Assembly (NCBI GenBank): GCA_051362555.1
Contig: CM120640.1
Coordinates: 2,170,001-2,234,000 of the forward strand
Length of the DNA stretch: 64,000 nt
Origin: Lingula anatina
Lineage: Eukaryota > Animalia > Brachiopoda
Reading direction: 5' to 3'
The notes below the pieces were generated by a model. That model was given only the letters and a program-made list of their open reading frames with translations, was not told where the DNA came from and searched no databases. Of the stretch, positions 651 to 61,445 are shown piece by piece. The position numbers were made by a program, and so were the translations under genes. Each line of letters begins with the position of its first letter. Within the stretch, counting starts at the first letter, position 1.

Positions 651-3600
651 TAGTAATAAGTTTATTGAGCACTATATGACATGAATACATTTGCAGGCTC
701 ACTAGACTACATTATTTACACATATAATTTATATATGTTTACATACAAACAAACGAACAAACAAATAAATACCATGAGTTGCATCAAATATGCCTCTTAC
801 TTGCTACAAAGCTAATCCTCCTCCTCTTCTCCATGATTTCTGGACTGCAGCAGATCAGGCCTGTCTTGGCACATGTCCTGTGACAGCAGAGGCCACACTC
901 TGGAGAACAAACAACAGGCAACGTCTGCCTTTAGAACTGTTCTGACCACAAGTGTGAAGGTTCTTAGTATCTAATGTCAGTTTGTCAATGAATTTTACCA
1001 CGCAAGTTCTAGAATTTGGTTTATATATATTGTTTACTCACACCAAAGTCAACTGACAGTTCAGTGAAATAGGGTAGTGTTAGAGATCGCTTAGACAGCA
1101 AAAAATGTTAAAATGTAACATTTAAAAGCAGAATATCATTATTATTAAATAACCCCCTCCCCCCCCCAACAAAAAATAAACAAACAAACAAACAAACAAA
1201 CAAACAAACAAACAAACAAACAAATAAATAAATAAATAAGGACTGATAAAAGCCAGGTGTAAGCCCTGGGTGGTGGCTGTGGCCTACCTCGACACTGCAG
1301 TCCCTGATGCATGAGACCGTGAAGGAACTTGTTACAGATATGACAGCGTTGGAGAGACGAGAAGCTGTATTCCACCACTTTATGGTCAGTGTCTACACAG
1401 TTCACTGGAAGGACAAGAGAAAAAGTTACATGTCAGTGTAACAAACAAACAAACAAATCAATCTATTAACAAATAAAATCTAAAGATATATCAGGCATGA
1501 GACCAGTCCTCACCAAAAAAATAGGATTTACATGATTCACCCTGAAAAAATTGGAATTCTGATAAAAGTCGGAGAAAGTCCCATCAGCGTATATATAAAA
1601 CATTCAACAGAACCTTGTGTGGACTTACCTGCCACATCCAGTGGTTCATTAGAGGGAGGTAAGGCAGACCCATGTGGTTGCTGGAATGATAACACAACTA
1701 CACTTATAATGTATACACACTCAATGTTTATACAGTTTTTATTCTCTTGAGGTGAAATCACCCAAGATCTTCATTTCATATTCTGTTGCACACATATATA
1801 TACGGGGAATCTAATGCCAATTAATTAAAGAAATAGTTAATTAAGACTGCTAACATGAGTGTTGGAATATTTACCTGCTCTGACTCCCTGCCGCAAAGAT
1901 CATCAATACACACAAGGATGGCTTTTCTGTGAAAATCATCTAGAATTCCCATAACCTAGGAGACAGTGAAAATGAAAAATCTCTAAATCACTTGCCACAA
2001 CACGCGACTTGGGCCTGAAGACACCCAATAACACAGAGACAATACCAACTACAGAAAGATGAACTGACAATAGATCCAGACAAGTGCCCGAGTCTGACAA
2101 GTTTGACTCCAATGACAGAAATTTGATTCTACTCAGTGAGTAATATCTGGATTTACTGCGTATAGGACTTCAAGACATCCCTCCACTAACAAACGCCCAC
2201 TCTTCACAGCTTTATAGCATCCTCTCCCAGCGTAGCAGACATTCACTGTATGGGGCTAACATCTTGTTAATCAACAGGTTCCTCTTATTGAAAACTTAAC
2301 AGTCAGCTGTCAATCATCCCACTGCTCAACCAATCAGAGCAAAGCACGAGGTACCCCAGTTAAATTAGACAAAACAATAACTTTAACCTCATCAAGTCCT
2401 TGAGCTGTATCTATTCTCTCTTTATCTCACAACCTGAGGACATTAAAATTAAATTCTAATGAGAAGCCAACATGGGCCCTTTCCTTTTTGAGTTGTTTTT
2501 AAAATAAATTTGGTTACAGTCATGGTAAATATCTTTTTATAATCAATACATGCTTAAGTTAAAAGAATCCTAACAGTATCTGTTAAGTAAGTGTCACTCT
2601 AATCCAGGTTAATTTGACACTAAACCCATTCATGAAAACAGTACAAATAGGAATACATAGAAGTATGTGAAAACTTCCTCTGTGGAAATTGAAAATCATG
2701 TCCACAAAATTCTCTATATTATATATACAATAGCCTTTAAACTGCAAACAACTTAAAAAAAAGAAATAAAAGCTAACTGCAGCTAAACTGAAAAAAAAAA
2801 AAAAAAAAAAGGTTGCCTACATTTTTCAAAATTTCATTTTCTCTTTTTCAATCTCTTCACCCAATCGCCCAACCTATCTCTCCCTAATCCATATTTTTAA
2901 CTTATGGTGCGGTTGTTTGTCTGGTTTCACTTGATATCTAACTGGAAACTCTAATCAGTAACACTAAACCTAATCAGCTTGTAATCCAGCACTGGGCTTC
3001 CTTCTTCTAATGAGCACACAATACTGCAGCACTAGAGGATGAAGCCAGGTTCCAGAAAACGAGCTCTTATAATTTAGGAGGAGAAAGAAACTGATTAAAA
3101 CAATACAATCCAAATCTGGCCTTGACATTCCATTCCCAAGAATCCAACAGGTTTCTCTGTGATTAAATCACGTTTTTCTTCACTATCTGCATTAACACAA
3201 TTTATCAAGGTCAAAAACAAACCAATGTCAATAACTAAAAATACATCATTAACTTCCTAACACCCAAAATAATACACAATTTTATCAGTTAGTTTTGAAA
3301 TATGTGATTTCATAAAATTACTCCTTTTATAGCGTTTTTATAGTGCAGAAAAGTTCATATGACAAAGTTGATAAATGAACCCTTCAGTAAAGTTAAATAT
3401 GAAACAAGGCAGCAAAGCTGTCAAATGTACAGACAAAAAGCAGGAAATAACAAAATAGGCTACTGTCAATTCCGATGTAAAAGTACATTATGTTAAACTG
3501 CAAATTCAACATCAAATTTTAATTATGCTCAACAGGTAATAACAATGTAAGTAAAATGTGTAACAAGCATAAGGCTTCAGGCCCATGGGAGTTCAAGTTC

Positions 3601-31600: not shown

Positions 31601-33369
31601 ACATACAAAAAAGCCAAAAATGATGTTTCTTTCTCATAAAAATATGTCATAAGCCCAATCCCTTGTTTTGTATCCCATGAGTATGTTATGTGTACAGGGG
31701 AACAAATGAATGTCATTCCAATACAAAATAGTCATTCTCATGACCAAGATCCATAGATGGTGGACCAAAATGTTGTGTTTGACTGATGTTATTATTTAAG
31801 TCTCTAAGCAAAGAATAATCTTGTTTTGTTATCCTATCTAGAGACCATGAAAAGCATCTCTCATAGTTTTTTTAAAACGATACTGATGATTTCTTTATGG
31901 TTACTGGCTGCGCATCAGGCAATAGAAGAGAGGACTACATCACAACTGATTGTAACATTATAGTTATAAACTCCACAAATCATCTATTCTGATTAAATCA
32001 GTTGTAATTGTGTTAACAAGCATTTTAATTACTATTCTTAACCACAGTAAGCCAATGTAATCCCCAGGATGTCTTACCCACTAATGCACTGAATTAGGCT
32101 TTTTATAATTACAGCCAATTTACAGGAAAAAAACTCAATCATAACAGTCTTTTTTACAATTTTTGAGGAAATACAAAAACAGACCCAAAAATGATTATTC
32201 ACTTTCTTCAGAGATTCCAAATTTTGTACTTGTCTCTTTTGTGATTTCTGATAACTCTTGTAGTGTGTGGGAAGAACCAATTGAAAGTAATCAGAGTCCA
32301 GTGATGGGGGCAGTAGATAGATTAGATTGGCTCCATATGGTGATCTTATCATAACCATAACCTAACACACAGAATAGATTCCCTGCGGGTATTATGCAGC
32401 ATGGTTTTAACTGGGCTGACCATATTTGATCAGCAGATCAGTTAGTCTGCGGATCAGCTTTGGTTGTGAATGTGGCCTTAGACTAAAGCTGAATGAAATG
32501 ATTGTACTTTGTAGTTTGTACTAGGTAATCCTTTAATCTAACTGTATTTAGTGAGTGTCCACAAAGGTAGTTAGAAATACCTAGCTAGTACAACACTTTC
32601 ATTGTGTCACCACCCCAAGGGCAGTTCAATCTAAATAAGAGAAAAGCATTTTCTGCTGACCATTTTAATTACAAAAAAACGGATTGTAGTCAGTTAAAAT
32701 AAGACCTTTTTTTCATCTAACAAAAACCTGCTGTAATCTCTGCATAGGATATTGCAATCTGTCCTACGGAAATGGAACACCCTGATATATTAGGATCATA
32801 TCTGCTCTTTTCCTGTTTAAGTACTTCCACACAGGTAAATGTAACAGAATCTCAGGTTTTACAGTGAAACTTAATATAGGAATTATACAGTCACCAGTTC
32901 AGCAGAAGTCCATCTAATAAAACACAAAGTGGCTTATAAAGGTGCAAAGGTGGCTTACTGCTGAGCTGGTACCTTTGACCAACTGACCTTGTGGTGAGCC
33001 ATAGCCGGAGTCATCTATAGAGGACTGGGCACTGGACTGCGTCTTGACCAGCCCTGCCATGGACTGGTACTCGTTCTCCTGGCTGTGGGGCAATGATGGC
33101 TTGGATTTCCTTGGCTTGGAAGGGAGGGGTGGAGTCTTCTTGCTGGTCCTCACATACTTCACATAGGTGCCAGGGAAGAGCCCCCTGTCCCTCGTCCTCG
33201 TGTTTGTCCCCGTCAGCCAGCTTTCCGGCACCTCAATGCTTCCCTCGATCTCAGCCACATTGGTCACTTCCAAGAGGTCATTGACCTCGATATCAATGTA
33301 CCCTTCCTCCTTCTCTTCATCACTAGGGCTGTAGTTGTACAGCGCCTGATAGAGCACTATCTCTCCCAT
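305..33369 (-). CDS. PIK3R1: PI3K regulatory subunit (p85-like), 5' part; join(complement 32988..33369, 30390..30455, 13745..13792, 8287..8387, 5550..5684, 1875..1955, 1629..1680, 1288..1404, 801..899, 305..415); SH3-C1-SAM-C1-RhoGAP; 3' end outside window
   Basis: Ten GT-AG exons join in one open frame (1192 nt, about 397 aa) with matching phases. The N-terminal SH3 has p85-type features (YQALYNY, long insertion, WLTGTN..T..RGLFPGTYVKY), followed by a Pro-rich motif and later a RhoGAP start (FGADLTDQF...APDVIVHCTQEIE). The diagnostic SH2 domains are not in the window, so orthology is inferred. Confidence 0.8.
801..899 (-). CDS. PIK3R1: p85-like exon: C1b domain part 2
   Basis: ttctccag|(E)CGLCCHRTCAKTGLICCSPEIMEKRRRISFVA|gtaaga; 99 nt, phase 1-1. 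Confidence 0.9.
1174..1238. repeat. (AAAC)n(AAAT)n compound microsatellite
   Basis: Directly visible. Confidence 0.9.
1288..1404 (-). CDS. PIK3R1: p85-like exon: C1b domain part 1
   Basis: ccttccag|(V)NCVDTDHKVVEYSFSSLQRCHICNKFLHGLMHQGLQCR|gtaggc. Confidence 0.92.
1629..1680 (-). CDS. PIK3R1: p85-like linker exon
   Basis: ttccag|QPHGSALPPSNEPLDVA|gtaagt; 52 nt, phase 0-1, needed to keep the frame. Confidence 0.82.
1875..1955 (-). CDS. PIK3R1: p85-like exon: SAM domain part 2
   Basis: ctcctag|VMGILDDFHRKAILVCIDDLCGRESEQ|gtaa; 81 nt, phase 0-0; SAM C-terminal GI....HR..IL..I. Confidence 0.9.
3562..5482 (+). mobile_element. Non-autonomous Helentron-associated (HINE / pearl-like) element with internal tandem arrays
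   Basis: Starts AACAAG; about 300-340-bp units (starts about 3573, 3872, 4211), about 405-bp duplication (about 4266, 4671), about 158-bp units with CGAACTTGACCTG; (GACGGC)n microsatellite 5375-5432; perfect 13-bp-stem hairpin 5450-5479 followed by an A-run. Confidence 0.65.
5550..5684 (-). CDS. PIK3R1: p85-like exon: SAM domain part 1
   Basis: ctccag|PVHTWTLSQVLEWMAALNLYRYVELFKRNNIKGKDLMTLDESKLE|gtaaat; SAM pattern W....V..W...L.L..Y...F....I.G..L..L. Confidence 0.92.
5906..6073 (+). mobile_element. MITE family A (CAGGGGCGGAT...ATCCGCCCCTG), copy 1
   Basis: Full-length similarity to 49363-49529; TIRs; imperfect 5-bp TSD atagt/atagg. Confidence 0.75.
6368..6583. mobile_element. MITE family C, copy 1
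   Basis: TIR gatcttttcaatagggaaaatt / aattttcccatttgaaaagacc; similar to 7268-7486. Confidence 0.65.
6634..6805. repeat. Degenerate tandem repeat, about 60-70-bp unit x2.5
   Basis: Recurrent aatatct..ccagtcatgg and cctagca.aca. Confidence 0.6.
7268..7486. mobile_element. MITE family C, copy 2
   Basis: TIR atctcttcaatgtggtaaatt / aatttccacattgaaaagatc; interior similar to 6368-6583. Confidence 0.65.
8287..8387 (-). CDS. PIK3R1: p85-like exon: C1a domain part 3 and linker
   Basis: tactttcag|(V)CKHCYHQCCRNSSDACRGTSATVADNNTYTEEV|gtgagt; 101 nt, phase 1-0; completes HX12CX2CX13CX2CX4HX2CX6C. Confidence 0.85.
12728..12796. repeat. (CA)n microsatellite with degenerate flank from about 12575
   Basis: Directly visible. 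Confidence 0.97.
13745..13792 (-). CDS. PIK3R1: p85-like exon: C1a domain part 2
   Basis: tttttcag|(C)KDYIWGSGKVGVKCE|gtgagt; 48 nt, phase 1-1; not in the ORF track. Confidence 0.88.
14998..15254. mobile_element. Fold-back MITE (hAT-like), almost entirely palindromic
   Basis: CAGGC...GCCTG ends; arms complementary over about 100 bp (gcagatcttttagc/gctaaaagatctgc; aaacccacaaat/atttgtgggttt); imperfect 8-bp flanks aaccttga/aacctggt. Confidence 0.7.
15524..15588. repeat. (AAAT)n microsatellite
   Basis: Directly visible. Confidence 0.95.
16602..16682. repeat. (AT)n microsatellite
   Basis: Directly visible. Confidence 0.97.
18841..19000. mobile_element. Degenerate family-B-related MITE fragment
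   Basis: ggcccgcagccag, G-run, aaaaggtcca / aaggtccacttt.tcagaaaa and a C-run shared with family B. Confidence 0.5.
19678..21846 (+). mobile_element. Decayed ISL2EU / PIF-Harbinger-like DNA transposon (THAP and DDE remnants)
   Basis: About 26-bp TIRs (tagcctttttcatcttttccggaaat ... atttccgcaaaagatgaaaaaggtta) flanked by AT on both sides; THAP remnant from 19768 (MAGFTC...NNSKRD..RLNKFP...W...RVCAEHF) with stops; DDE_Tnp_4-type VERVIGEIKSYLFL at about 20515; CpG-rich relative to host. Confidence 0.78.
23205..23542. mobile_element. TTAA-TSD non-autonomous DNA element (Kolobok-like)
   Basis: TTAA|AGGGATAATAACTCTT ... AAGAGTTATTATCCCT|TTAA: perfect 16-bp TIR. Confidence 0.78.
23694..23981. repeat. 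Minisatellite, about 71-73-bp unit x4
   Basis: Repeats of gtatctggtccaagttagacc.ggtgtgaac.t.acattaatctctatgcaacagga.gccaggca. Confidence 0.9.
26482..26669. mobile_element. Tourist/Harbinger-like MITE (family D, GTTCACAACCA subtype)
   Basis: gttcacaacca / tggttgtgaac inverted ends, internal caaatatgg / ccatatttg, TAA flanks. Confidence 0.6.
26673..26909. mobile_element. Tourist/Harbinger-like MITE (family D)
   Basis: TAA|ggccccattcagaatgaatgatctgagtacttactgatc ... gatcagtaagtactcagatcatccattccgaatggagcc|TAA; about 60-bp TIRs. Confidence 0.82.
30176..30192 (-). promoter_or_regulatory. CTCF-consensus site
   Basis: Minus strand reads TTCCACTAGGTGGCAGT, matching the CTCF core CCASYAGRKGGCR. Confidence 0.5.
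30390..30455 (-). CDS. PIK3R1: p85-like exon: C1a domain part 1
   Basis: tttttttcag|..AASRRKHVLTEVFFVKPILCGF(C)|gtaagt; 66 nt, phase 1-1. Confidence 0.85.
32345..32480. mobile_element. Family D MITE fragment (right arm)
   Basis: ccatatttgatcagcagatcagttagtc..ggttgtgaatgtggcc|tta resembles the right arms at 26610-26669 and 26850-26880. Confidence 0.5.
32988..33369 (-). CDS. PIK3R1: p85-like coding exon 1: SH3 domain, Pro-rich motif and linker (exon probably begins in the 5'UTR at about 33573)
   Basis: MGEIVLYQALYNYSPSDEEKEEGYIDIEVNDLLEV...WLTGTNTRTRDRGLFPGTYVKYV; donor AAG|gtcagt (phase 1); upstream acceptor ttttcag at 33574-33580. Confidence 0.9.
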
Positions 33370-34746
33370 GTCTCAGCTTGCCTCTGTCATCTGTTAGTTT
33401 GCCTTACTGATCATCAATCCTGTCCTCATGCTGAAGTCACGCACACCACATCAGCTACATCTACAGATGCTTGGAGGCACTACGAGTCCAGGTCCAGATG
33501 GAAGCAGATGGAAAGATGGATGCACTCTGCACAATAGATTGCCCAGAAAGTCGATCACAACTTGTGCGTAACTCTGAAAATATAAACAAAAACATAAGCA
33601 ACCTATCTCGGGTCAAAAACCTGAAGTGTGTGGTAGTAACAAGGCATGTGATGAACAACTGTGTAACACATGTGCTGACTTAAATCTCCCTCGCTTGGAT
33701 TGACTGCTTGAACAAAGGGGATAATCTATGGAAAAAAGCCATAGGAAATCCCAGCATAGGACACTGTGGCTTCATTTTCTCTGTAGCCAAGTTACTATCT
33801 ATGACACGGCCCCTGTTGCACACCGACACCTTATAATCTGTTCAATTAAATACAATATGTCCATGAATATTATCAGACATCCCCAAGGTTAAGATATTTA
33901 CATACTGCATCTTTTAATCAATTTCTAAGCTTATAAAGTCTATCAATATTTATTTGTGATTATCATGACCTGAAATAGATTTATTTAAAATAGTACTAGT
34001 ATGTATATAAAATCCATCATATATACTTTGAGCAATCAAAAAGCAAAAGGTGTGAAAAAAGTACAATTTTATAGATGAACTTCATATTTATGTTCATTTC
34101 ATGATGTATATTATTGACTGACTTAGAACTGTTCACAATGATTACGAGTGTGATATCATATTGTGTAAGTACAGAATAAAAAGAGACATAAACCACATTT
34201 AATGACAAAAGGACGATTTGTTTTCCAATCCAACTTATATGATGCAGTATAGATGCATTTTTATACACATTCTTGGGATTATTTTTGCCCTGATACACTA
34301 TAATCAGCTAATCCCCTGGAGAGGTACATCCATTTTCAAACATTATTATCTTCCAATAAAGAAGTATGCTACAAAATGTGCACAATGACATGACCAGGAT
34401 ATAAATCCTCATGAAAACAAACAGTCATAGTGTGTAGATTTAATTTTCTTTAATAATAAAACAAGAAAAAAAAAAGCTGACAAAGGTTTAAGCATCAAGA
34501 CATGGGGGGGGGGGGGGGGGGGGCAGCAACATGGTTATCTTCTTAACTGAACAAGATATACCAAAATGTTGCATGTTTTAACTGCTTTCCATTTCATATC
34601 ATTATTTTATTGTGTAATAGTTACATAAAGAGATATACCCCTTGAACTTCCTGTTCAAGAGAAAAATTAATTCCTGGAAAAAGGGGTTAAATATTCATAA
34701 CAAGATAATGAGTTCTTTTTTCCTTCTTAACACACACACATACACA

Positions 34747-49529: not shown

Positions 49530-52138
49530 AAGAAACCAGCAGCATGCAGGGAAAGCAAGAGTCTTTCAAGGACACTACTGGAAGACCATGGTTCACGTTG
49601 ATTCTATTGATATGAAACGAAAGACCTTGAGGTGATCAAATGTAAATTTTGCACCTGAGGGATCATGTCAGTGGATTAAATTTGCAAGACTTCACACCCT
49701 GCAAACAAAACAAGCTCTTGACATAGTTTGATTTGGTTGTTTGATAAAATTGAGTGCAATGACATCTGTAAATATTTTCCCAGCACCTTGGAACTATTCA
49801 CATCACAACACTAATCTTATTATTTTTTATTTTGCAACGCATTAAATTTCTAATGTTAACAAAGTTGTAACATGTAATAGTAGTAATTAAGAAAGTAATA
49901 TGGTTTGTTATATTTTATACGTATGCTCTTATATTTGAAATAAATGGAGTCACAGTTTTTTATCAATATCTTATTCACAGCTTGGAAATGGTAAGTTGTA
50001 TATTTGAATCTTGGGTTAAGTTTTAGTTGGCGTCTTGCCAAGGCATCTTGCCAATAGGCTGGGATTTTTATACAATTTGATATACTAAAGTCTTGATACA
50101 TGCAAAACATTTTTTTACATTTTATTACACCATTTTCAACAATTTGTTAAACAACAATCTGCAGTGAAAGCAGTAATTAAATCAATAGATACAGTGTGTT
50201 TGTATCACTTTCAGTTTTGTCCCTGACAACATTCTTACATTTAAATTGGACTAACAATGTATGAAATAAAACATTATGACAGACTATGAAGAAGGTCTTG
50301 TTAAAAAAAAAACATATAAGTATATCATTCAATCAGAGACAGCCTGCTTTGCTACATGTACCAGAGCAGCATAAGAGCTTTAAAAAACAATACAATAATA
50401 CAACTAAGTAAAGATAATAAAATCCAGCTGTTTTTGAATTAACCCACTTAAAAGCATGTAATAGTTCAAATATTCCCTAAGGCAAAGCTTGGTTTAAACA
50501 GACTATTTTTATCTCACTTTATTTTGCACCTTGATAACAGATTTTGCCTAGTCTAAATACACATACATGTACAACCTGCATGTACAGGCATCATATTATA
50601 ACAAGAAATTAATGAAAAAAAAATTATTTTTCAATGCTGAAGTACAATAAAGTTTGACTATTAAATACTAACCATTAAATTAAAGGAGTAGCAAGGCATG
50701 ATAAAAAAGAAAAACTATAATTACACCATTACTTTCACATATTCAATACTGTAACTAGTGGGCATCAATAACATAAAAGTTACCTTTTTACCAATCAAAC
50801 AATCCAGTTCTTTATACGCAATTTTAACAAAGTTCATCCCTCTGAGAAATCCACTGAGTGACATAACTGAAGTTAAAATGATTGATATATTGTAGACAAA
50901 GTTTTCATTTTTTGTTTGAAAGTAAATCCCACATGCAGGGCACATACATCTTTCTGGCATGTAACAGTTCTATCAAAATAGCATCACCAATAACCAAATC
51001 CAGGTTATTTTTTTATTCAGGATGGTATGTACTCCATGTACACAGAATGATTCAATAACAGCACTTAACTTAATTACAACTCACAGCTGCTCTACCACAC
51101 ATACCTCACTGCAGGTAGCTGGAATAAACAGGAATGAAATATCAATGATTTTGTTGACAATAACACATCTATTCAAGCCCTGAAGCATGTAGGTCTGGCA
51201 ACCTGTTAATGCAATTCCCTTGAATTATACCAGATGTCAAAAATATCCTGAAAAACAGGCAGAGCAAGGGGTTGGATGGGGGGGGGGGAATCTTTTTTTT
51301 TTGTAGACATTTATTGTTAAGTGCAACCTCATAGTGCAATCCCTATATATATGTTATTTTAGTAAAGGCATCAATTATCATATAAGAACACAATATTTTG
51401 AATAAGAAAAAGCACATACCAAAATGTTAAAAAAGACAATTTTTGTCATGAGAGTTTATGAAAGTTCAGATTACACAGCATAGTAGGTATCAGTGTACCA
51501 AATATCATCCAGCTATGGAAACTGCTTTCCCAAAAGTGAATGGCTTGATAAGTAGAAAAAAATCACAACCAATAAAAAATACCCTGTCTGTGTCATGAGA
51601 ACAGAAAAATGCATCTGATTTATATTCCAACAGATTATCATGTAACCAGTGGTCCGGACAGCTTGAAGGCCAACAACACACAGGAGTAGAGGCACACAGC
51701 CATGTTGTAGAATATTGACATCCCTTGGGAACTGCTATCCAAATCTGTGTTAACATGTCTTTAAATGTCTTTCAAACCACTGTGATGACAAAAAAAAATT
51801 AATAATAATAATTAAAAAAAAAAAACAGCCATAACTGTCAGCAGACATTAAAATATCACTTACTCTACCTAAATTCAATGAAAAGACCTTAGAGCATCAA
51901 TGAATTGTTCACAACACTGTCCCAAGTTGTTCCCATCGGCTTAAATAAATAAGCTCAACACAAGCAGATAGCCTGCTAAGATGGGTAGACCCAACTTGTC
52001 TGGAAACTCAACTTCAGAGTCTTAAAAAAGGAGAGCTTTTAACAAAGTCAACTCAACTTGAAGAGTCTTTGAAAAAAGCAAGAACATAAACCTTTTTTTA
52101 TGTGATCCGTCTTTTCTGGCCTAGTCCCAATGGCTGTA

Positions 52139-52326
52139 TCAAACACGAATAGTTGTGTCTGTTTTGTGTTCAGTTTCCATCATCTCTGTTAATACGTCTG
52201 TGTCTCCCTCTTCCTGGGCTATCGTCTTTTTCCTCTTTCTGTCAAATTTTGTCAACAAAGCTCCTAATCCTATCCCAACCAAAGTGCCACATAAAAACAT
52301 GGATGCCGCTATACCTGTTACCATAC
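52139..52326 (-). CDS. CTBS: CTBS-like exon 9 (transmembrane helix and cytoplasmic tail)
   Basis: cttttttcag|(G)MVTGIAASMFLCGTLVGIGLGALLTKFDRKRKKTIAQEEGDTDVLTEMMETEHKTDTTIRV*; hydrophobic stretch then basic stop-transfer cluster; phase matches exon 8. Confidence 0.82.
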
Positions 52327-53746
52327 CTGAAAAAAGTACCAAATAACTGACATGAGAAATGCACATAAGAGGACCTATCATGTTAAATTTGTCGAAATAA
52401 CTTAAATTTGATCTATAAGGAATCTGAAAAAATGAAGTAAAACTTACCAATTTGAAAATGTTTGAATGTTAAACAATTATCCTATAATGAAAATAATCTT
52501 TACTTTAACTGTAAAACATTATAAGCCAGTTTTCAAAGCTCTGCCCTTCTGAAGAAGCAGGCAAGAGAAGGATTGGAAACAAACTGATATGTTGTATTTA
52601 TCTTTCTTCACACTTCTAATTAAAATACCACTTCAGAATATTGTAACATGAAGTTTTATACAATGGTTCTATTTAGGTGCAATTCTTTTAAATATCATAG
52701 TGTATCAAAATAGAAGGGTACCTGGGAGTTGTTCGTCACATGCTCTACTCTCATACTTGTATGCCTCTACCAGGTCTACTGCTTCCCACATATGATATGT
52801 GAAATTTTGGATTTCTTTCTGTGATGAGTTGTATTCTAAGCTGTCTCCATACCATACTGCAATTCCTACATAAAAAGTTTATATATATATATATATTTGA
52901 TTATAAAAATTAGTGACAAAATAAAACAGCAAATAAAAAAATGTATGAAAGTTCTTTAAAAAACAGCAACAAGTTTTATAGTCATTTATTTTCATATTTC
53001 CCTTGAAATTTAGAGATGAAACAAATTCAGCTGAAATAATTACATAAATGTATAATGAACTGCATATTTTAAAACCATCCTAACTATCATTGTCTTGTTG
53101 AAACAAAAAATGAATGACAGCCATGGTTGACAACACAATGAGTGCTGCACAGCTCAATCTCACCTAACACAATCTGTCTGTCATGCAATGAAACAGTAAC
53201 AGCACCTTACTTACCTTTAAAATTAGCTTCTTTAGAGTATGCATATTTTGTCCAGGTACTTTGTTCATCTTCATACCAAACTTGATACATATAACCATCA
53301 GTGGTATTCTGATGAGAAAATAACACAGGATTACACAGGGTTATCAACAGCAAATTTCTAAGAATAATTTTACAATGGAATAATACCTGTTTTTTACAAT
53401 GGAATAATACCTGAAAAACAATTTATCTCCCAAATGAAATGAACCCCTTAATATCTTCATTATTAATAGGTATTTTACCTGTCAATCAAGTCATGGAACC
53501 TAATACCAGTTGTACACTTTCAAGACTTACTAAATAGCCAAAAGAATTGGTCACTTACCTTGAAATTAAAATAAGGTGTTCTGTACCCAGAATGCCACAG
53601 TCTGGAGGCGTTATACTGGACTTTGATTGCCAGTATTTTGGCCAGTGACAGTCTCTCGCCAGTGGCATAGCTGCAGTTAACACCATGGAATGGTTTTGGA
53701 GAAACAATACATCTGTTGGTCTGAAAAAAGTGACGTACATAAAAAA

Positions 53747-53777
<31 letters not shown>

Positions 53778-56075
53778 TAATTAATATCCTTGAGATAAAA
53801 CTGTTACTAGAGGGTCAAAGCAGCAATACCGCCATCAAGTTTTGCACCATCAGCAGGAATGAGATAATTCAAGGCTGCTTTCAGAACAATGGACTAACTA
53901 GTCCTTGGGTCAAATATGGCTACCCACTGAAAAGTTTACCATAAATAGATTTCCTATAAGGAAGTAAGTGGGTCGGCCATATTTGATCCCGGACTAGTTA
54001 TTCCACTGTTCTGAATACATCCAAAGTTTAACAATATTTACAATGCCTTTATCAGCCAGCTTTACCTTGGGATCAAAGTGTATACACCTGTACTTGTATC
54101 CGTACCAAGGTACTGACAGGACCATCTGGTTGACAGGCATATTAACGGACATGTACATGGTGTAACCTGCAATGTATGGCAGGCAGACATCTTACGTTAG
54201 ATCCAAGAAAACATCTCTTTTGGTTCAGAAAGTAACTACAAGGAACATTTATCATTACCACTGCATCAGAACCTGTTCATACAACAACCAGTCATTACTG
54301 TTAATGGAGAATACTTCTGCTAGTCAAACAAAAATACATACACATAAGTATAAAATAATTGTAAAGAAAGAAAGAACTAAGTAGTGAGGGGGTGTTCACT
54401 GTAAATAAGTTCACTGTAAATAAGAAATTCCATGTGTAATTCCATGTTGAATGTCATCCCAAAACACCTATACTTGAACTTGTTACAACATATACATGTT
54501 CCAGTGAATCAGAACCCTCTTGGCTTCATTTTAGTTATAAATCATACTGAGACTGCATGTACATCCTTACCATACAAAATCCGTGCAAACGGTGCATGTG
54601 CCCCTGCTGTGCAGTTCCCTCCCCAGTCATGTACGCCATGAATGTGGTCAGATTTGATGATGAACAGATCAACTATTTCAGCCATTTCAGCTTCTGGCAA
54701 GCACATGTCATCAAAACAATAAGGCATCCAAGGTACACTAAATGATAACTAGTAAAGAAAGAAAATATCTTAATATAAACATGTGATATACGTATATATA
54801 TATATATATATATACCTTTGTTGTGTATGATTCACAATCATTTTAGCATGTACAGTATTACATGTACCACCCAAAATGGTAAGAGATCAAATTAGAGGAT
54901 TCAATGCACAAAGTGGTGTTTTTAAACAGACACATGTGCTAGTAATAGATTATAATTAAAATGTATGAAACCCATGAAATAATTGTCAAATTACAGTGTG
55001 CACCAATACTTTGAAATAATTCTCAATTTATTGGTGCATGCTATAGCTGTGTCCATACCAAACTAATCCACAGAAACTGTCCTACCTGACATTTTGTGGT
55101 ACTTCCATCCCCAACAACTGGAAAGTTCCCTATCATATCATCAAAACCGTTCCTAATGTCTCTCAAAACAGAAACTAGAAGTCTGCTATCGTTAGAGTCT
55201 TGTGCTAGAGGCACGTCAAGGTCCAGATTTATGGCATCATTCCTCGTACAGTGAGACTGAAAAATTAACCCCTTTGTGAAGTTTTCCCTAAACTCTGTAT
55301 CGTAAAATGCTGTGATGTTTTTCAATACATCTGAAAAAAAAAAGCATAATGTCTCTCATTAATGTATGGTTCTAGTATCTCCATTTAACAAGGTTGGGTT
55401 TCTGATATATTTATTTATTTAGATCACCACCATTTACAATGGAATGAAAACAAAAACAAAATAAGATGAAATAAAATACATAAAATAACAAGCCTTCAAA
55501 AAACTCTCACATACATATGTGTGAAAATAAGTCAAATATGTAACAAAAACTGAATAAAATTTTGTGAAAAGCCATGTGTAAAAGATTTATCATCACCTAA
55601 TCTCATTTATACCAAACTTCCCATTTCACACATCTTTGTATATTTCAAATATCATGGTGTGTGTGTGTGTGTGTGTGGGGGGGGGGGGGTTAATCATTCA
55701 GGAATGTGGGTAAAATATAAGTACGTGTAAGTTGATACACTATCTCTAGGCAGGAGAGTATCATATTACCCTGATCATGCAGGTACCCCCAGTACTCATT
55801 CACACACTAAGGTTTAATTAAGTCACTGGGAGCACCAACAATAACCTGAGGCACAATGACAGTAGTCAAGATGCAATGTTACATCACTCACATTATATAA
55901 ACCTTGGTTCAAAATGTCATGTGGGAATGGATATGGCTTACATCATTAACATTCTCGACCCTTGGGGTGGTATATTATACACAATGCAGCTAGGTGTTGC
56001 TTGCCTTCTACCTGCATGCTCCCTTACTACATATGTAGCTTACCCGGAACTTGTGTATGACTAAATAATATATAT

Positions 56076-56139
<64 letters not shown>

Positions 56140-59100
56140 ATATGTATATAAACTAGATAAGTGGATGTCATTTCATCTCTTTACATTATAATTGCAATCA
56201 AGTCACAACACTGTATCTCCACCAAAGTCATAAATCCTGCCTTTGCCAACTGAAATCATAGCACGGTTTCTGTGACAAAACTGTCTAAAAAGGAGTACAC
56301 AGTAAACAATGGGGGCTAAAATTGACTTGTATATCTCTATGCCATGACAGGCTCCATGTATAGTCTTCCCACACACTGTTTGTCTACTGGGACTGTTATC
56401 ATCTCAAACAGCCAGGAGACGAGACAGGTGAAGAAATTTAATGATTTTTAAAAGCAAGGAGGTGTAATGGAGAACTGATGTGGATTAACGACTTTATATT
56501 AAGTGAAAATAAGTGTGCACTTTGAAATTTTGCTTTTGTAAATTTGCTTTTCTGTTTTTTTTTTTTTTGTTTTTTTTAGTAAATCAATTCTGTGCTGCTC
56601 AAGCTAACATATTTCTATGAGGCTGGATATGTGTTTTCAGATGCTTCCGAACAGCAAAAATCAAACCACTTGACATTTTCATAGACATTTAACCATCAAA
56701 ATAACAAATGGCTATCAATTTCATATTTCCTTAAAAGCATGCAGACTATACTTAAGTATATGCGTAGAACCCTACCCCCCCCTTCACCCTCCCCCCCTCC
56801 CCAAAAAAAAAAAAAAAAAATGAACAGTTAAAACTCACATCTCAGTCCATATCTGGCTCCCTGTTTGTGGGCGTGGCACATCAGCTCCGGGTCATGGAAG
56901 TTCTCAGTGTATACCACTGTAATATTTCTCCAGTCCCAGTGGAGGTAAGTTTTACTAGTCACATCCTTGTCCTTGGCAAATACAATCACCTGAAATTAAA
57001 ACAAAACCAAAAAGGTGTTGTAAAAGACTATAGCAGAACTTTCCTCCATTAAAAAACAAAAGAGACAGACATTTCTCCCTCCCTTCCCTCCCTTTGCCTT
57101 AAATATTGAAGAGTTTGTACAAGAAAATAATGTATTAAGAAATATTTTTCGATATTGAAATGATGTAACTATAGAGGATATGCAGATATTAATGGAAAGA
57201 ATTAGAGGATATAGAAATTCGTTAAGATGGAAAAGTCTAAAGTGACAATTGACTCCGGTGGATATATGTCCACATACAATCATTTTATCACAAACATTCA
57301 TAAACAGATTATGGTTTACATTACGTGTACCAAAATGCATAACAAAATAATGCAACATTGTTATATATTATCTATATAACAATGAGACATAATTATATAT
57401 AAGCACATGAGCCACATGATAAACACACCTGGAGACCATTTGTCTATCATTACCACTGATACATTGCTTTATGTACTGATCAATACCCAGTCTATGGACA
57501 ATATATTCATCCTTGGACAGCTTAATGGAAAATAATCAGTATTTTGTATCAATATCGTCTTTTTCAGGAAACCAATGTGATAAAAAGCTGCCAGTACTTA
57601 GGGCTCCTAAACTATGGCAAATGGATTTTAACGAATGATTCACCTTATAAGCTACCTGGTCTTTGATGAATCATGCTTTTACCAAAATGCATTTAGTTAA
57701 CTTTAAGATCTAAGAACTTTTCTTTGTTTTATATAAAACTATGCATATGCGTTTTTTATGTGTGAGATTGAGAAGGTGCATCTGCCTACTCCAAAGAGCT
57801 CTTCTTTCAACCCCTCCCCCCCACACACCACTCCCTGTCTATGAACCTGACAAAAAAGCAACTCTCAAACAGTAAAAAAATAAAAAATAAAAAAAAAACA
57901 GTACTGAGGTTACAAACTGCAATACTTGACTTCATAAAACTGCATGACTGTGATTTTTTCAGTTGTTCTTTTAGATATATACCTTTAAATAAAAGAGAAA
58001 TCCTTTAAAAATATAATGGAAATGCTATCAACCAAAAACCACACAAAAGAGTGTGACCAAGCTTGTAAGATGGCCATTTGTTATCAATGAGGTAAAATTA
58101 GATGACAAATAAATCGTCTGCACTGGCAACACCCTAGCAACCACAGCCAGCCATATATTTGCTGAAGTAGAACATTAAATGTGCTATGAATGCATTCGGA
58201 ACAGCAGACTAACGGATCTGCGAATCAAATATGGCCAACCCGCTAGAATGCTTGTTGAGTAATCCCCGCAAGAAATCTATTTAGTATCTAATCGAGAATT
58301 AAGATGCAATCTTTTTTGGGGGTCACTTGATCCGCTGTTTTGGTCCACTAGCTGTTTTGAATATGCTCTATGTCATTCTCCTATTCTGCCTCAGGTAAAT
58401 GACATGACCAACATCAAGAACACACACACTATATTTATACTGGTATATCATCATTTTTATACAGTTATAAAAAAAGAGCCTCTTATATCATTTTTTTTAA
58501 TGTTTTAATTTTGTTTGTGCTTGAGTGAACCACCCCTATAGTCCATACATTATGCTACAGTGACAGTAAAAACCTTGTAACCAGTGGCAAACTAAAGGGA
58601 GCACATCTTTCATATAAGAAAATGACGATGGATGACATCATAACGCAGTACGTGAGACTTGTCTCCACCCAGTGACATCAGCCTCAGGCCACCATTTCAC
58701 AAAATGACAAAAACCTAATGCAGACTGCATGCTGAACTTTTAGTCCAATAACTTAAAGAATCCATAAATAAATGTCCCTCATCCCCCTTTTTAATCTGTC
58801 TTTTAACCAAGATCCTACAGCAAATTTTACCTATGTTGACAATTGATTTTTCTCTTAGTACTCTGTCAACTACATTTATTGTGAGTTAACCATTGATAAA
58901 ATACTCTAAGACCAATATACCAAACCAGACTTTACATAGTCACCTAGTGAACAATTTTAGCAGGCTAAACAGAGACCAAAATTTGAACATCATAGCCATT
59001 TCTTCCTTGTTCTAAAACAAAGAATCGCAAAGGCCAGAAATTGACTAAACTTAAAAGAAAGAAAAAAATGTACACATACATGTATGTATGCCCCTCTCAG

Positions 59101-60479: not shown

Positions 60480-61445
60480 CTACGGGCCTGGTAGACTACC
60501 AGGCCAGTAGCCAGGGGGGGTTCGGGGGGTTCGAAAGAACCGCCCCTTTTGGTGGGAAAAGGTCCACTCTGGGTAAATTTTGATCTAGGTTTATGAAGTT
60601 TTTATGGAAAAAGGTCCACTTTTTCAGAAAAAGAACCCCCCTTTTGAAATTGCTGGCTACGGGCCTGACTACACACTTCTACCACTACTGATCTACTTCT
60701 TTACTTCTATCCCCTCCACCCCCAGTCTAGTATGACATCACACAGTGACAAAAGCTAGCTGTCCAGGATTCTAAGTTATAGGCCATATTGTATAGTGGTC
60801 TTGAAATAAGTCTATTCTATTGATTATGCATTGTTAGTCTTCTATTCACCCTAAAAGTCATAGTTTACATACCCTATCAAAACACCTTCCAAAATGGAAA
60901 AGGCATGCTGACTATATTATGTTGAAATTCCTGTAAACTTTTATAACAAAAAAAAAAAATAATACCAGGAATAGTGATACCGTTTCCATCACCAGTGATA
61001 CCCATGGTGATCAGGCATATTCACACTGGGAACATTTTTCACATGCAACAGCTTTTTGTAATGGCACATCAGCTGAATATTGATGCATATATTTTAAGTC
61101 AAAAAGGCACAAGTCTATGCCATGCAGTGTGTAAAATATAAAACCCTACACACCCATAAGCAAACATGCACCGTCAGTAGCATGTGTAAATAGCACTTGT
61201 TCCTATGCTAATACTCTTACATATCTATGCTAATACTCATTCTGTTACAATATCAAGTGGTGTGATTTCTTCCATACCTCTTTCCTGTGCTTATTGGCCA
61301 CTATAGGTTTACATTGCTCCAGTGTCTTGCAATCACATGGGTAAGTTTTGTCACAATAATAGGAAGACCCAAACTGGGCACAGGTCACTATGAGGGCCGA
61401 GCCCAAGAGATACAGCCTAAACACAGCAGTCCTGAACATAGTCAT
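52139..61445 (-). CDS. CTBS: Di-N-acetylchitobiase-like GH18 protein with C-terminal TM helix, 476 aa; join(complement 61278..61445, 56839..56989, 55086..55330, 54571..54748, 54066..54166, 53559..53720, 53215..53308, 52722..52865, 52139..52326)
   Basis: Nine GT-AG exons sum to 1431 nt in one frame. CTBS hallmarks: signal peptide, C.C....C.P, WDWRNIT, DPELMCHAHKQGAR, VPWYGY.Y.C, PF.G..CS, PYFNFK, QVWYED, GIAVW..D.L.Y, MWE. May be a divergent paralog rather than the ortholog. Confidence 0.88.
52722..52865 (-). CDS. CTBS: CTBS-like exon 8 (end of GH18 barrel and stalk)
   Basis: (G)IAVWYGDSLEYNSSQKEIQNFTYHMWEAVDLVEAYKYESRACDEQLP|gtaccc. Confidence 0.88.
53215..53308 (-). CDS. CTBS: CTBS-like exon 7
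   Basis: NTTDGYMYQVWYEDEQSTWTKYAYSKEANFK|gtaagt. Confidence 0.9.
53559..53720 (-). CDS. CTBS: CTBS-like exon 6
   Basis: TNRCIVSPKPFHGVNCSYATGERLSLAKILAIKVQYNASRLWHSGYRTPYFNFK|gtaagt. Confidence 0.92.
53873..54022. mobile_element. Tourist/Harbinger-like MITE (family D) in a CTBS-like intron
   Basis: ttcagaaca..ggactaactagtcc..ggtcaaatatggc.acccact / agtgggtcggccatatttgatcc.ggactagtta..tgttctgaa; similar to 38589-38761. Confidence 0.7.
54066..54166 (-). CDS. CTBS: CTBS-like exon 5
   Basis: (G)YTMYMSVNMPVNQMVLSVPWYGYKYRCIHFDPK|gtaaag. Confidence 0.92.
54571..54748 (-). CDS. CTBS: CTBS-like exon 4
   Basis: LSFSVPWMPYCFDDMCLPEAEMAEIVDLFIIKSDHIHGVHDWGGNCTAGAHAPFARILY|gtaagg. Confidence 0.88.
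55086..55330 (-). CDS. CTBS: CTBS-like exon 3 (degenerate catalytic motif DAINLDLD)
   Basis: (Y)VLKNITAFYDTEFRENFTKGLIFQSHCTRNDAINLDLDVPLAQDSNDSRLLVSVLRDIRNGF...KCQ|gtagga. Confidence 0.88.
56078..56135. repeat. (GT)n microsatellite
   Basis: Directly visible. Confidence 0.97.
56839..56989 (-). CDS. CTBS: CTBS-like exon 2
   Basis: VIVFAKDKDVTSKTYLHWDWRNITVVYTENFHDPELMCHAHKQGARYGLR|gtgagt; not in the ORF track on this strand. Confidence 0.92.
58188..58368. mobile_element. Degenerate family D MITE
   Basis: gcattcggaacagcagactaac..atcaaatatggccaaccc with a partly complementary right arm. Confidence 0.5.
60254..60490 (-). mobile_element. MITE family B copy (inverted orientation, expanded C-run)
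   Basis: Reverse complement of family B; TSD gtaga/gtaga; about 68-nt C homopolymer. Confidence 0.85.
60500..60667 (+). mobile_element. MITE family B copy
   Basis: TIRs; TSD actac/actac. Confidence 0.85.
61278..61445 (-). CDS. CTBS: CTBS-like coding exon 1 (signal peptide and Cys motif)
   Basis: MTMFRTAVFRLYLLGSALIVTCAQFG...PCDCKTLEQCKPIVANKHRKE|gtatgg; acceptor ctttttatttacag near 61507. Confidence 0.85.

Follow-up and report, generated by a model that had tools for sequence, protein, structure and literature searches.

The window analysed here, i.e., the whole 64-kb stretch of Lingula anatina DNA, contains a gene on the minus strand that is referred to as the TM-chitobiase gene. It was modelled as nine exons separated by GT..AG introns, with 476 codons, one stop and no internal stop. 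The 476-aa product is laid out as a predicted signal peptide, a GH18 barrel of the chitobiase (CTBS) type, a stalk, a single predicted transmembrane (TM) helix, and a tail of 36 aa. No second copy of the gene was detected within the 64-kb window.

All features of the gene are located on the minus strand. The coding part of exon 1 (61278..61445) holds the start Met, the predicted signal peptide at approximately residues 1-25, and the Cys-rich CTBS N-terminal loop. It was placed by its splice site, by an N-terminal hydrophobic segment (hydropathy 1.6 at residues 7-25), and by the identical N-terminus of the RefSeq protein. The barrel starts in exon 2 (56839..56989), the 3' end of which was seen as the loose end of reads at 55330. 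Exon 3 (55086..55330), carrying the degenerate catalytic motif, exon 5 (54066..54166), with the PWYGY motif, exon 6 (53559..53720), encoding the insertion domain, and exon 7 (53215..53308), including E348, were assigned from the gene model and reads. Exon 4 (54571..54748) is supported by junction reads and encodes K220-S-D-H223 (54655-54644) instead of the conserved M-x-Y-D of strand 6. Exon 8 (52722..52865) comprises strand 8 with W371, the final barrel helix (MW, W393), and then a stalk of approximately 20 residues. Exon 9 (52139..52326) has a polypyrimidine-AG acceptor in phase 1 and encodes the predicted TM helix (52253..52321), the predicted cytoplasmic tail (52139..52252), and the stop. 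The 3' UTR (50500..52138) is at least 1.6 kb long, with read depth in each bin down to 50500 and AATAAA signals near 51315, 51017, 50523, 50126, and 49831.

Two other features were recognized around the locus. In intron 5, nested inverted repeats with 32-nt and 14-nt arms were found at 53873-54022 and are likely a MITE. Reads of many other transcripts pile up there on both strands, and the element is therefore regarded as a repeat family. Downstream, an SH3 exon (32917-33372, minus strand) and a C1-domain exon (1148-1432, minus strand), both under the Pfam cut-off, belong to a neighbour spread over more than 30 kb, presumably a PI3K p85-type or similar signalling gene.

The original prediction, made from the sequence alone, stated that the frame of exon 8 runs past the MW motif and is spliced in phase to an extra TM exon, and reads joining 52722 to 52326 were named beforehand as the check. 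Exon 8 was found to extend beyond this motif to an AG/GT donor, and the junction is in phase 1 on both sides. Intron 8 (52327..52721, 395 nt, GT..AG) was removed in every run covering it, i.e., by 6 reads in X1, 4 in X4, 7 in X7, and 13 in X9. Further reads, 22 in X7 and 7 in X9, come from a divergent allele and appear as a skip of 418 nt interrupted by 23 letters, which again gives an intron of 395 nt (418-23=395). The 395-nt skip reads CT..AC on the plus strand, i.e., GT..AG on the minus strand, to which the stranded libraries X1 and X4 also assign the RNA. Read depth within intron 8 was zero in the bins 52337-52670 in all four runs. The predicted splice is thus borne out, and transcripts ending without the TM exon, which would have spoken against it, were not what was seen. 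A soluble read-through isoform terminating within intron 8 was ruled out by the zero intron depth; the RefSeq label, isoform X1, implies further isoforms.

Four more junctions are present in the read-joint table, and the exon 2-3 junction was seen as a loose end. The exon 7-8 junction, which adjoins a skipped repeat, is absent from this table, and the exon 1-2 junction lies outside the read-covered stretches; both were placed from their splice sites and from the RefSeq protein model. That model, XP_013397146.1, is annotated as di-N-acetylchitobiase isoform X1 [Lingula anatina], and corresponds to P0001 in the alignment. Its 476 residues are identical to the gene model at 467 positions, differ at 9, and include the same TM exon. 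When exon 2 was used as a query, this was the one protein found.

Transcripts were detected in seven of seven runs examined, from three studies. The variants in exons 3-4 were 27 silent and 8 amino-acid-changing (sites 88:332), i.e., pN/pS of approximately 0.08, and so the gene is constrained, working, and under purifying selection. It is real, expressed, and conserved. The reads of study P3 (X7, X8, and X9) showed many fixed differences from the window across 50500-55500, more than those of P1 and P2, and approximately half of the X7 and X9 reads are only 90-95% alike to it. The source of study P3 is a distinct population or a sibling species under one label, in which the splice and Asp145 are kept.

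In domain search, the protein matched PF00704 (E 7.5e-11), whereas single exons as queries gave no Pfam match above the cut-off. The AlphaFold2 model (pLDDT 78.6) showed a (beta/alpha)8 barrel with an insertion domain, as expected of GH18, and the top Foldseek matches were all GH18 barrels in the PDB. The best structural match in the Atlas was a CTBS cluster (TM 0.70/0.90). The PDB sequence search gave one weak match, and a solved CTBS relative was not found there.

The original prediction also described a type I membrane protein with a stalk, a TM helix, and a tail. A predicted signal peptide, one C-terminal hydrophobic helix, and basic residues behind it were found. Hydropathy peaks at 1.99 (19-residue window) at residues 420-438, followed by RKRKK, and the AlphaFold2 model shows one helix from residue 413, with low model confidence in the stalk at 404-412. 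The helix was assigned to residues 417-439 and contains G428-x3-G432-x3-G436; its core carries no charged residue, partly by the choice of the most hydrophobic window. Taken together, the hydropathy, the basic residues, and the modelled helix make the type I architecture almost certain. The tail had been described as RKRKK followed by an acidic stretch of about 35 aa. It is acidic as stated, but its 36 aa include the basic cluster and only 28 follow RKRKK; it is disordered and contains no Tyr. A homodimer prediction with residues 28-450 scored 0.15, below the mark of 0.32, which counts neither way. The predicted count of 10 N-x-S/T sequons was correct, and none of 20000 composition shuffles reached 10 (mean 2.4). 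The median, however, was 5 in TM relatives vs. 4 in soluble CTBS (p=0.06), and heavy glycosylation was dropped as a family trait.

The catalytic motif, D138..N141-x-D143-x-D145 (55215..55238), has Asp in place of the catalytic Glu of the DxxDxDxE-type motif. The codon at 55217-55215 is GAC, and no alternative letter was listed in four runs (depth approximately 3, 2, 40, and 29). Because the window, RefSeq, and reads agree, a sequencing or assembly error at this codon was excluded, and the altered active site that had been predicted is real. The motif aligns with DFE of oyster CTBS, and M-S-Y-D of the oyster enzyme corresponds to K-S-D-H in Lingula. In GH18 catalysis, strand 6 contributes its Met, Tyr, and Asp, and a Glu-to-Asp change abolishes GH18 activity. 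For the latter, a literature search gave no direct passage. Since the Glu and the strand-6 Met, Tyr, and Asp are all lost, hydrolysis by the TM-chitobiase appears very unlikely.

Relatives were collected by word-index protein searches, which gave 1, 8, and 9 matches, and then by a full HMMER search on 50% representatives, which gave 591 matches. The best 150 of the 591 were listed, and 157 sequences were aligned with seven fish CTBS added. At least 19 of these 157 homologues, P0001 included, have a TM helix behind the barrel, and among the matches listed they occur in gastropods, bivalves, and octopus. A TM gain specific to Lingula is ruled out, as the three mollusc classes sampled share the form. 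Fifteen of 18 TM relatives were looked up: seven are named clusters, i.e., Patella, Haliotis, Candidula, Babylonia, Potamilus (with Sinanodonta), Mya, and Octopus, and the other eight, including the nearest relative, P0009, are Logan records. The top hit of the Atlas feature search was a 64-protein cluster (approximately 458 aa, mostly molluscan, score 0.98), which may be the cluster of the Lingula protein itself; residues 367-476 as a query gave no usable match.

Co-occurrence of TM gain with loss of the Glu, proposed as a check in the original prediction, was supported in 134 of the 157 rows, the other 23 being left out because they did not cover both sites. Eighteen TM proteins lacked the Glu and none had it, whereas 109 soluble proteins had it and 7 did not. 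A membrane-anchored and catalytically intact CTBS is therefore not the norm of this lineage, and the soluble Glu-bearing enzyme occurs in Magallana (oyster), Haliotis (abalone), and Solemya. Because this soluble enzyme coexists with the TM form in molluscs, on which the paralogy rests, the TM form reads as an old paralogue of soluble CTBS. The 18 TM proteins form one clade, and so their shared TM gain and Glu loss are most readily explained by a single ancient event rather than by 18 correlated changes.

The protein was assigned to the chitobiase group, as the best named matches were CTBS, with barrel identity of 28-32%. In the unrooted ectodomain-only tree, a single branch (SH-aLRT 100) separated the TM set, 18 of 66 rows, from the rest, and in the unrooted mixture-model tree of the ectodomain, it was again one branch (14 of 36 rows, support 100/99). 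Lingula and P0009 were placed outside a mollusc-type group. In the AU test, a constraint that grouped P0001 with six soluble CTBS was rejected (p-AU 6e-5); three of the six belong to named mollusc clusters, and the group had been picked after the tree was seen. Orthology of the Lingula protein to soluble mollusc CTBS is thus contradicted by both the separate branch and the test. The trees hold chitobiase-group GH18 only, with no outgroup, and long branches could pull the TM set together. Two independent signs agree with the tree. One is E348, found in 19/19 TM proteins where Asp stands in 107/109 soluble active ones. The other is the fit of the Lingula helix to the mollusc TM profile, which only 6 of 20000 core-only shuffles equalled; the core-only kind was used because shuffling polar flanks into the helix overstates significance. 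It is therefore very probable that the TM proteins form one family branch shared by brachiopods and molluscs.

Some other members of the alignment showed features of their own. In mollusc TM helices, two Cys are well kept at alignment positions 424 and 437 (13 and 12 of 16) and are candidates for palmitoylation or pairing; Lingula instead has C427 in the helix and C409 in the stalk. P0029, P0038, P0041, and P0052 are CTBS paralogues that also lack the Glu but are soluble; they make up another, independent group adjoining fish CTBS, and the P0038 cluster consists of several Pristiophorus japonicus (sawshark) genes annotated as di-N-acetylchitobiase-like. P0014, P0020, and P0089 are long CTBS proteins (615-756 aa); the query aligned at two places in P0014 and in P0020, which suggests that their chitobiase domains are in tandem.

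The groove of the TM set was compared with that of the active enzymes, its residues being those we take to face the groove from GH18 knowledge, not from model coordinates. Among 109 Glu-bearing rows, strand 6 has its Met in 108, its Tyr in 108, and its Asp in 104, and 0/19 TM proteins keep any of the three. The polar groove positions of active CTBS that were lost are D192, R203, Y205, M220, Y222, D223, N239, and R293. Nearly all substrate-contacting polar residues that active CTBS conserves are replaced while the Cys, Gly, and Trp core positions stay. The replacements are themselves conserved, i.e., S223 in 17/19, D/E222 in 16/19, T239 in 15/19, and H269 in 16/19, and a non-Gly residue at position 369 is a shared derived state of 19/19. 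W195, W268, and Y271 are retained in 18-19 of 19, and these retentions and conserved replacements point to a groove that was reshaped yet constrained, not abandoned. W371, the -1 Trp, is retained in only 11/18. Lingula itself keeps W371, W195, W268, Y269, and Y271, and has lost the M/Y/D triad and the D192, R203, and Y205 positions. Some ligand is likely on this pattern, but because the groove is remodelled, with Met-Tyr-Asp lost in 19/19 and W371 variable, chitin as that ligand is not assured. Given the polar losses and the variable W371, the protein may bind no sugar at all.

The tails of the TM family are 25-44 aa long and have no domain. With their short length and no charged residue in the helix, such a tail seems too small to signal alone. 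Mollusc-type tails carry [FY]-x-[DE]-[DE] near the end in 17/17 and a terminal Leu in 16/17. This motif is missing from Lingula and P0009, whose tails have in common an E/D-rich LTEM word that only half fits the acidic dileucine signal pattern. In the accessible parts of PMC3660575 and PMC11459673, HDDSDEDLLE of sortilin and SFHDDSDEDLLHI of CI-MPR are sorting motifs. The mollusc TM-chitobiases resemble them in an aromatic-x-acidic cluster followed by a C-terminal Leu on a type I protein. However, sortilin and CI-MPR have DxxLL where the mollusc proteins have a single terminal Leu, and the ectodomains are unrelated. A GGA-type tail, with an acidic cluster and then a C-terminal LL pair, was not found, since mollusc tails end in one Leu and Lingula has neither element. 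The likeness may be chance among acidic tails.

The architecture and family membership are far surer than the function. We tentatively favour a non-enzymatic, glycan-binding, lectin-like trafficking receptor cycling between the cell surface or Golgi and endosomes, a reading that we hold to be plausible though somewhat short of even. It is favoured because the parent enzyme CTBS works in the lysosome, where its substrates are chito-oligomers and the chitobiose core of N-glycans, according to the part of PMC13213659 that was available. By this account, CTBS would have been duplicated before the brachiopod-mollusc split, a TM and tail exon would have been captured at a phase-1 intron behind the barrel, and hydrolysis would have been lost. 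The remodelled groove, facing the lumen or the outside, would bind a GlcNAc-containing glycan, i.e., a chito-oligomer, an N-glycan core, or a related one, and coat or sorting adaptors may recognize the acidic tail. A bolder version, which we consider rather unlikely, is that a tag built on GlcNAc (free chito-oligomers or N-glycan cores) is recognized by the inactive groove and that the tail directs the bound cargo to lysosomes. The protein would then be an ex-glycosidase cargo receptor predating the brachiopod-mollusc split, and the mollusc tail would have converged on an acidic signal like that of sortilin and CI-MPR. If true, this would add a new class to the animal lectin receptors, one present across Mollusca and misnamed as an enzyme in databases.

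Other functions have to be weighed against the trafficking receptor. A pseudoenzyme that binds protein and not sugar is possible but on the less likely side; it would sit in a membrane of the secretory pathway or of the lysosome as a scaffold, chaperone, or tether, e.g., for soluble CTBS or some other protein of the lumen. The loss of substrate-contacting residues around an intact core and the variable W371 agree with it, and the 10 sequons of Lingula would suit a lysosomal lumen. The retained W195, W268, and Y271 and the conserved strand-6 replacements fit a kept pocket better, no partner is known, and the sequon excess is not family-wide. The Lingula protein could also be a weak membrane-bound hydrolase or transglycosylase with Asp145 as the acid, and its motif is the least degenerate of the TM set, with D138, N141, D143, an acid at 145, and W371 kept. 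This is highly improbable: the strand-6 Met, Tyr, and Asp are gone too, the relatives have Leu, Val, or Met at 145, and a change of the Glu to Asp abolishes the activity of GH18 enzymes.

The original prediction proposed a chitin-oligomer sensor or anchor for matrix assembly or innate recognition. The type I architecture and the altered site were borne out, but the proposed function is on weaker ground. To act as a sensor, the protein would have to bind in an intact groove and be able to signal, and this is weakened by the groove losses in 19/19, a -1 Trp in 11/18, a Lingula tail without Tyr, and an uncharged TM core. As an anchor or organiser of nascent chitin on epithelia secreting shell, chaetae, or radula, the protein would suit a TM form found so far, among the matches listed, only in chitin-secreting brachiopods and molluscs. 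In the accessible part of PMC4595640, Lingula shell formation uses chitin synthases and a chitinase. However, chitobiase occurs 0 times in that genome paper and one text supplement, and the first two of the seven chitinase rows seen there are CHIT3-like. Besides, the substrates of CTBS are short oligomers, attacked at their reducing end, as stated in part of PMC13213659, the Lingula protein has no chitin-binding module, and the transcripts appear in every run, so we regard this role as unlikely. Identity with the shell chitobiases of bivalves was ruled out, as these are GH20, another family, in the portion of PMC7747718 available. A pattern-recognition receptor signalling chitin or peptidoglycan fragments via a partner, like plant CHRK1 or snail GRC, is less likely again. 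An inactive GH18 ectodomain with a TM helix is the CHRK1 plan (PMC10573068, in part), chitobiase cuts the GlcNAc-MurNAc unit (PMC1945033, in part), and Gly-x3-Gly, present in 19/19 TM segments with G428 invariant, could pair with a co-receptor. Against it stand a tail with no kinase or other domain, and a signalling or fast-evolving immune sensor is argued against by the Tyr-less tail and strong purifying selection on a gene with no tandem copy in the window, where GRC genes are hyperdiverse and clustered (PMC4361660, as far as accessible).

The Lingula protein thus joins the GH18 pseudoenzymes as an apparently undescribed form, derived from chitobiase and anchored in the membrane, that brachiopods have in common with molluscs and that databases misname. 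The literature searched, which consisted of listings and abstract openings with most subscription papers outside the scope, gave no account of a chitobiase paralogue with a membrane anchor; supplements of mollusc CAZyme or proteome studies may list TM forms. In the text seen of the C. elegans CHIL paper and the Enchytraeus paper, a TM chitobiase was not mentioned, and the latter lists both its chitobiases as extracellular. RefSeq and UniRef label the TM form as di-N-acetylchitobiase, and a correction bears on studies of mollusc digestion, shell, and immunity. The TM-chitobiase is a single testable candidate for membrane binding or uptake of chitin fragments or related glycans in brachiopods and molluscs.

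Compared with known systems, CTBS is the closest, as the databases name the TM forms so and the Cys pattern and the PWYGY and MW motifs are shared. However, CTBS ends as a soluble protein just after the MW helix, whereas the Lingula protein adds a stalk, TM, and tail exon, lacks the Glu and M-x-Y-D, and stands on a separate branch. In tobacco CHRK1, a single-pass membrane protein, a kinase is joined to a class V chitinase ectodomain that also lacks the Glu (PMC10573068, in the part available). The TM-chitobiase has only a short acidic tail, which ends at a stop after 36 aa in both reads and RefSeq, and the two were probably independent in origin. Biomphalaria grctm3-5 are likewise mollusc proteins that cross the membrane once, and they resemble chitinase by BLAST (PMC4361660). 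As described in the accessible portions of PMC4361660 and PMC8861042, they have FN3 domains, ORFs of 855-1104 nt, and tails of more than 50 residues, and are clustered and hyperdiverse. By these descriptions the TM-chitobiases are set apart, with a whole GH18 barrel, only PF00704 in Pfam (17/18), tails of 25-44 aa, and low pN/pS. The FN3 domains, tails above 50 aa, high allelic dN, and clustering of grctm3-5 were not found, and identity with GRC genes was rejected on these features.

The GH18 chitolectins, i.e., YKL-40/CHI3L1, Ym1, IDGF, oyster Cg-Clp, and SI-CLP/CHID1, share with the Lingula protein a GH18 barrel without the proton-donor Glu, as far as seen in the survey PMC1945033. They belong to the chitinase or SI-CLP groups and keep their sugar-binding residues, whereas the Lingula protein is a chitobiase-group member with a membrane anchor and without the strand-6 triad. 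The survey groups GH18 into chitobiases, chitinases/chitolectins, and SI-CLP, and the word transmembrane has 0 occurrences in its accessible text. The animal GH18 pseudoenzymes covered there are lectins of the chitinase and SI-CLP groups, and the TM-chitobiase would stand beside them as a conserved, membrane-anchored one of the chitobiase group.
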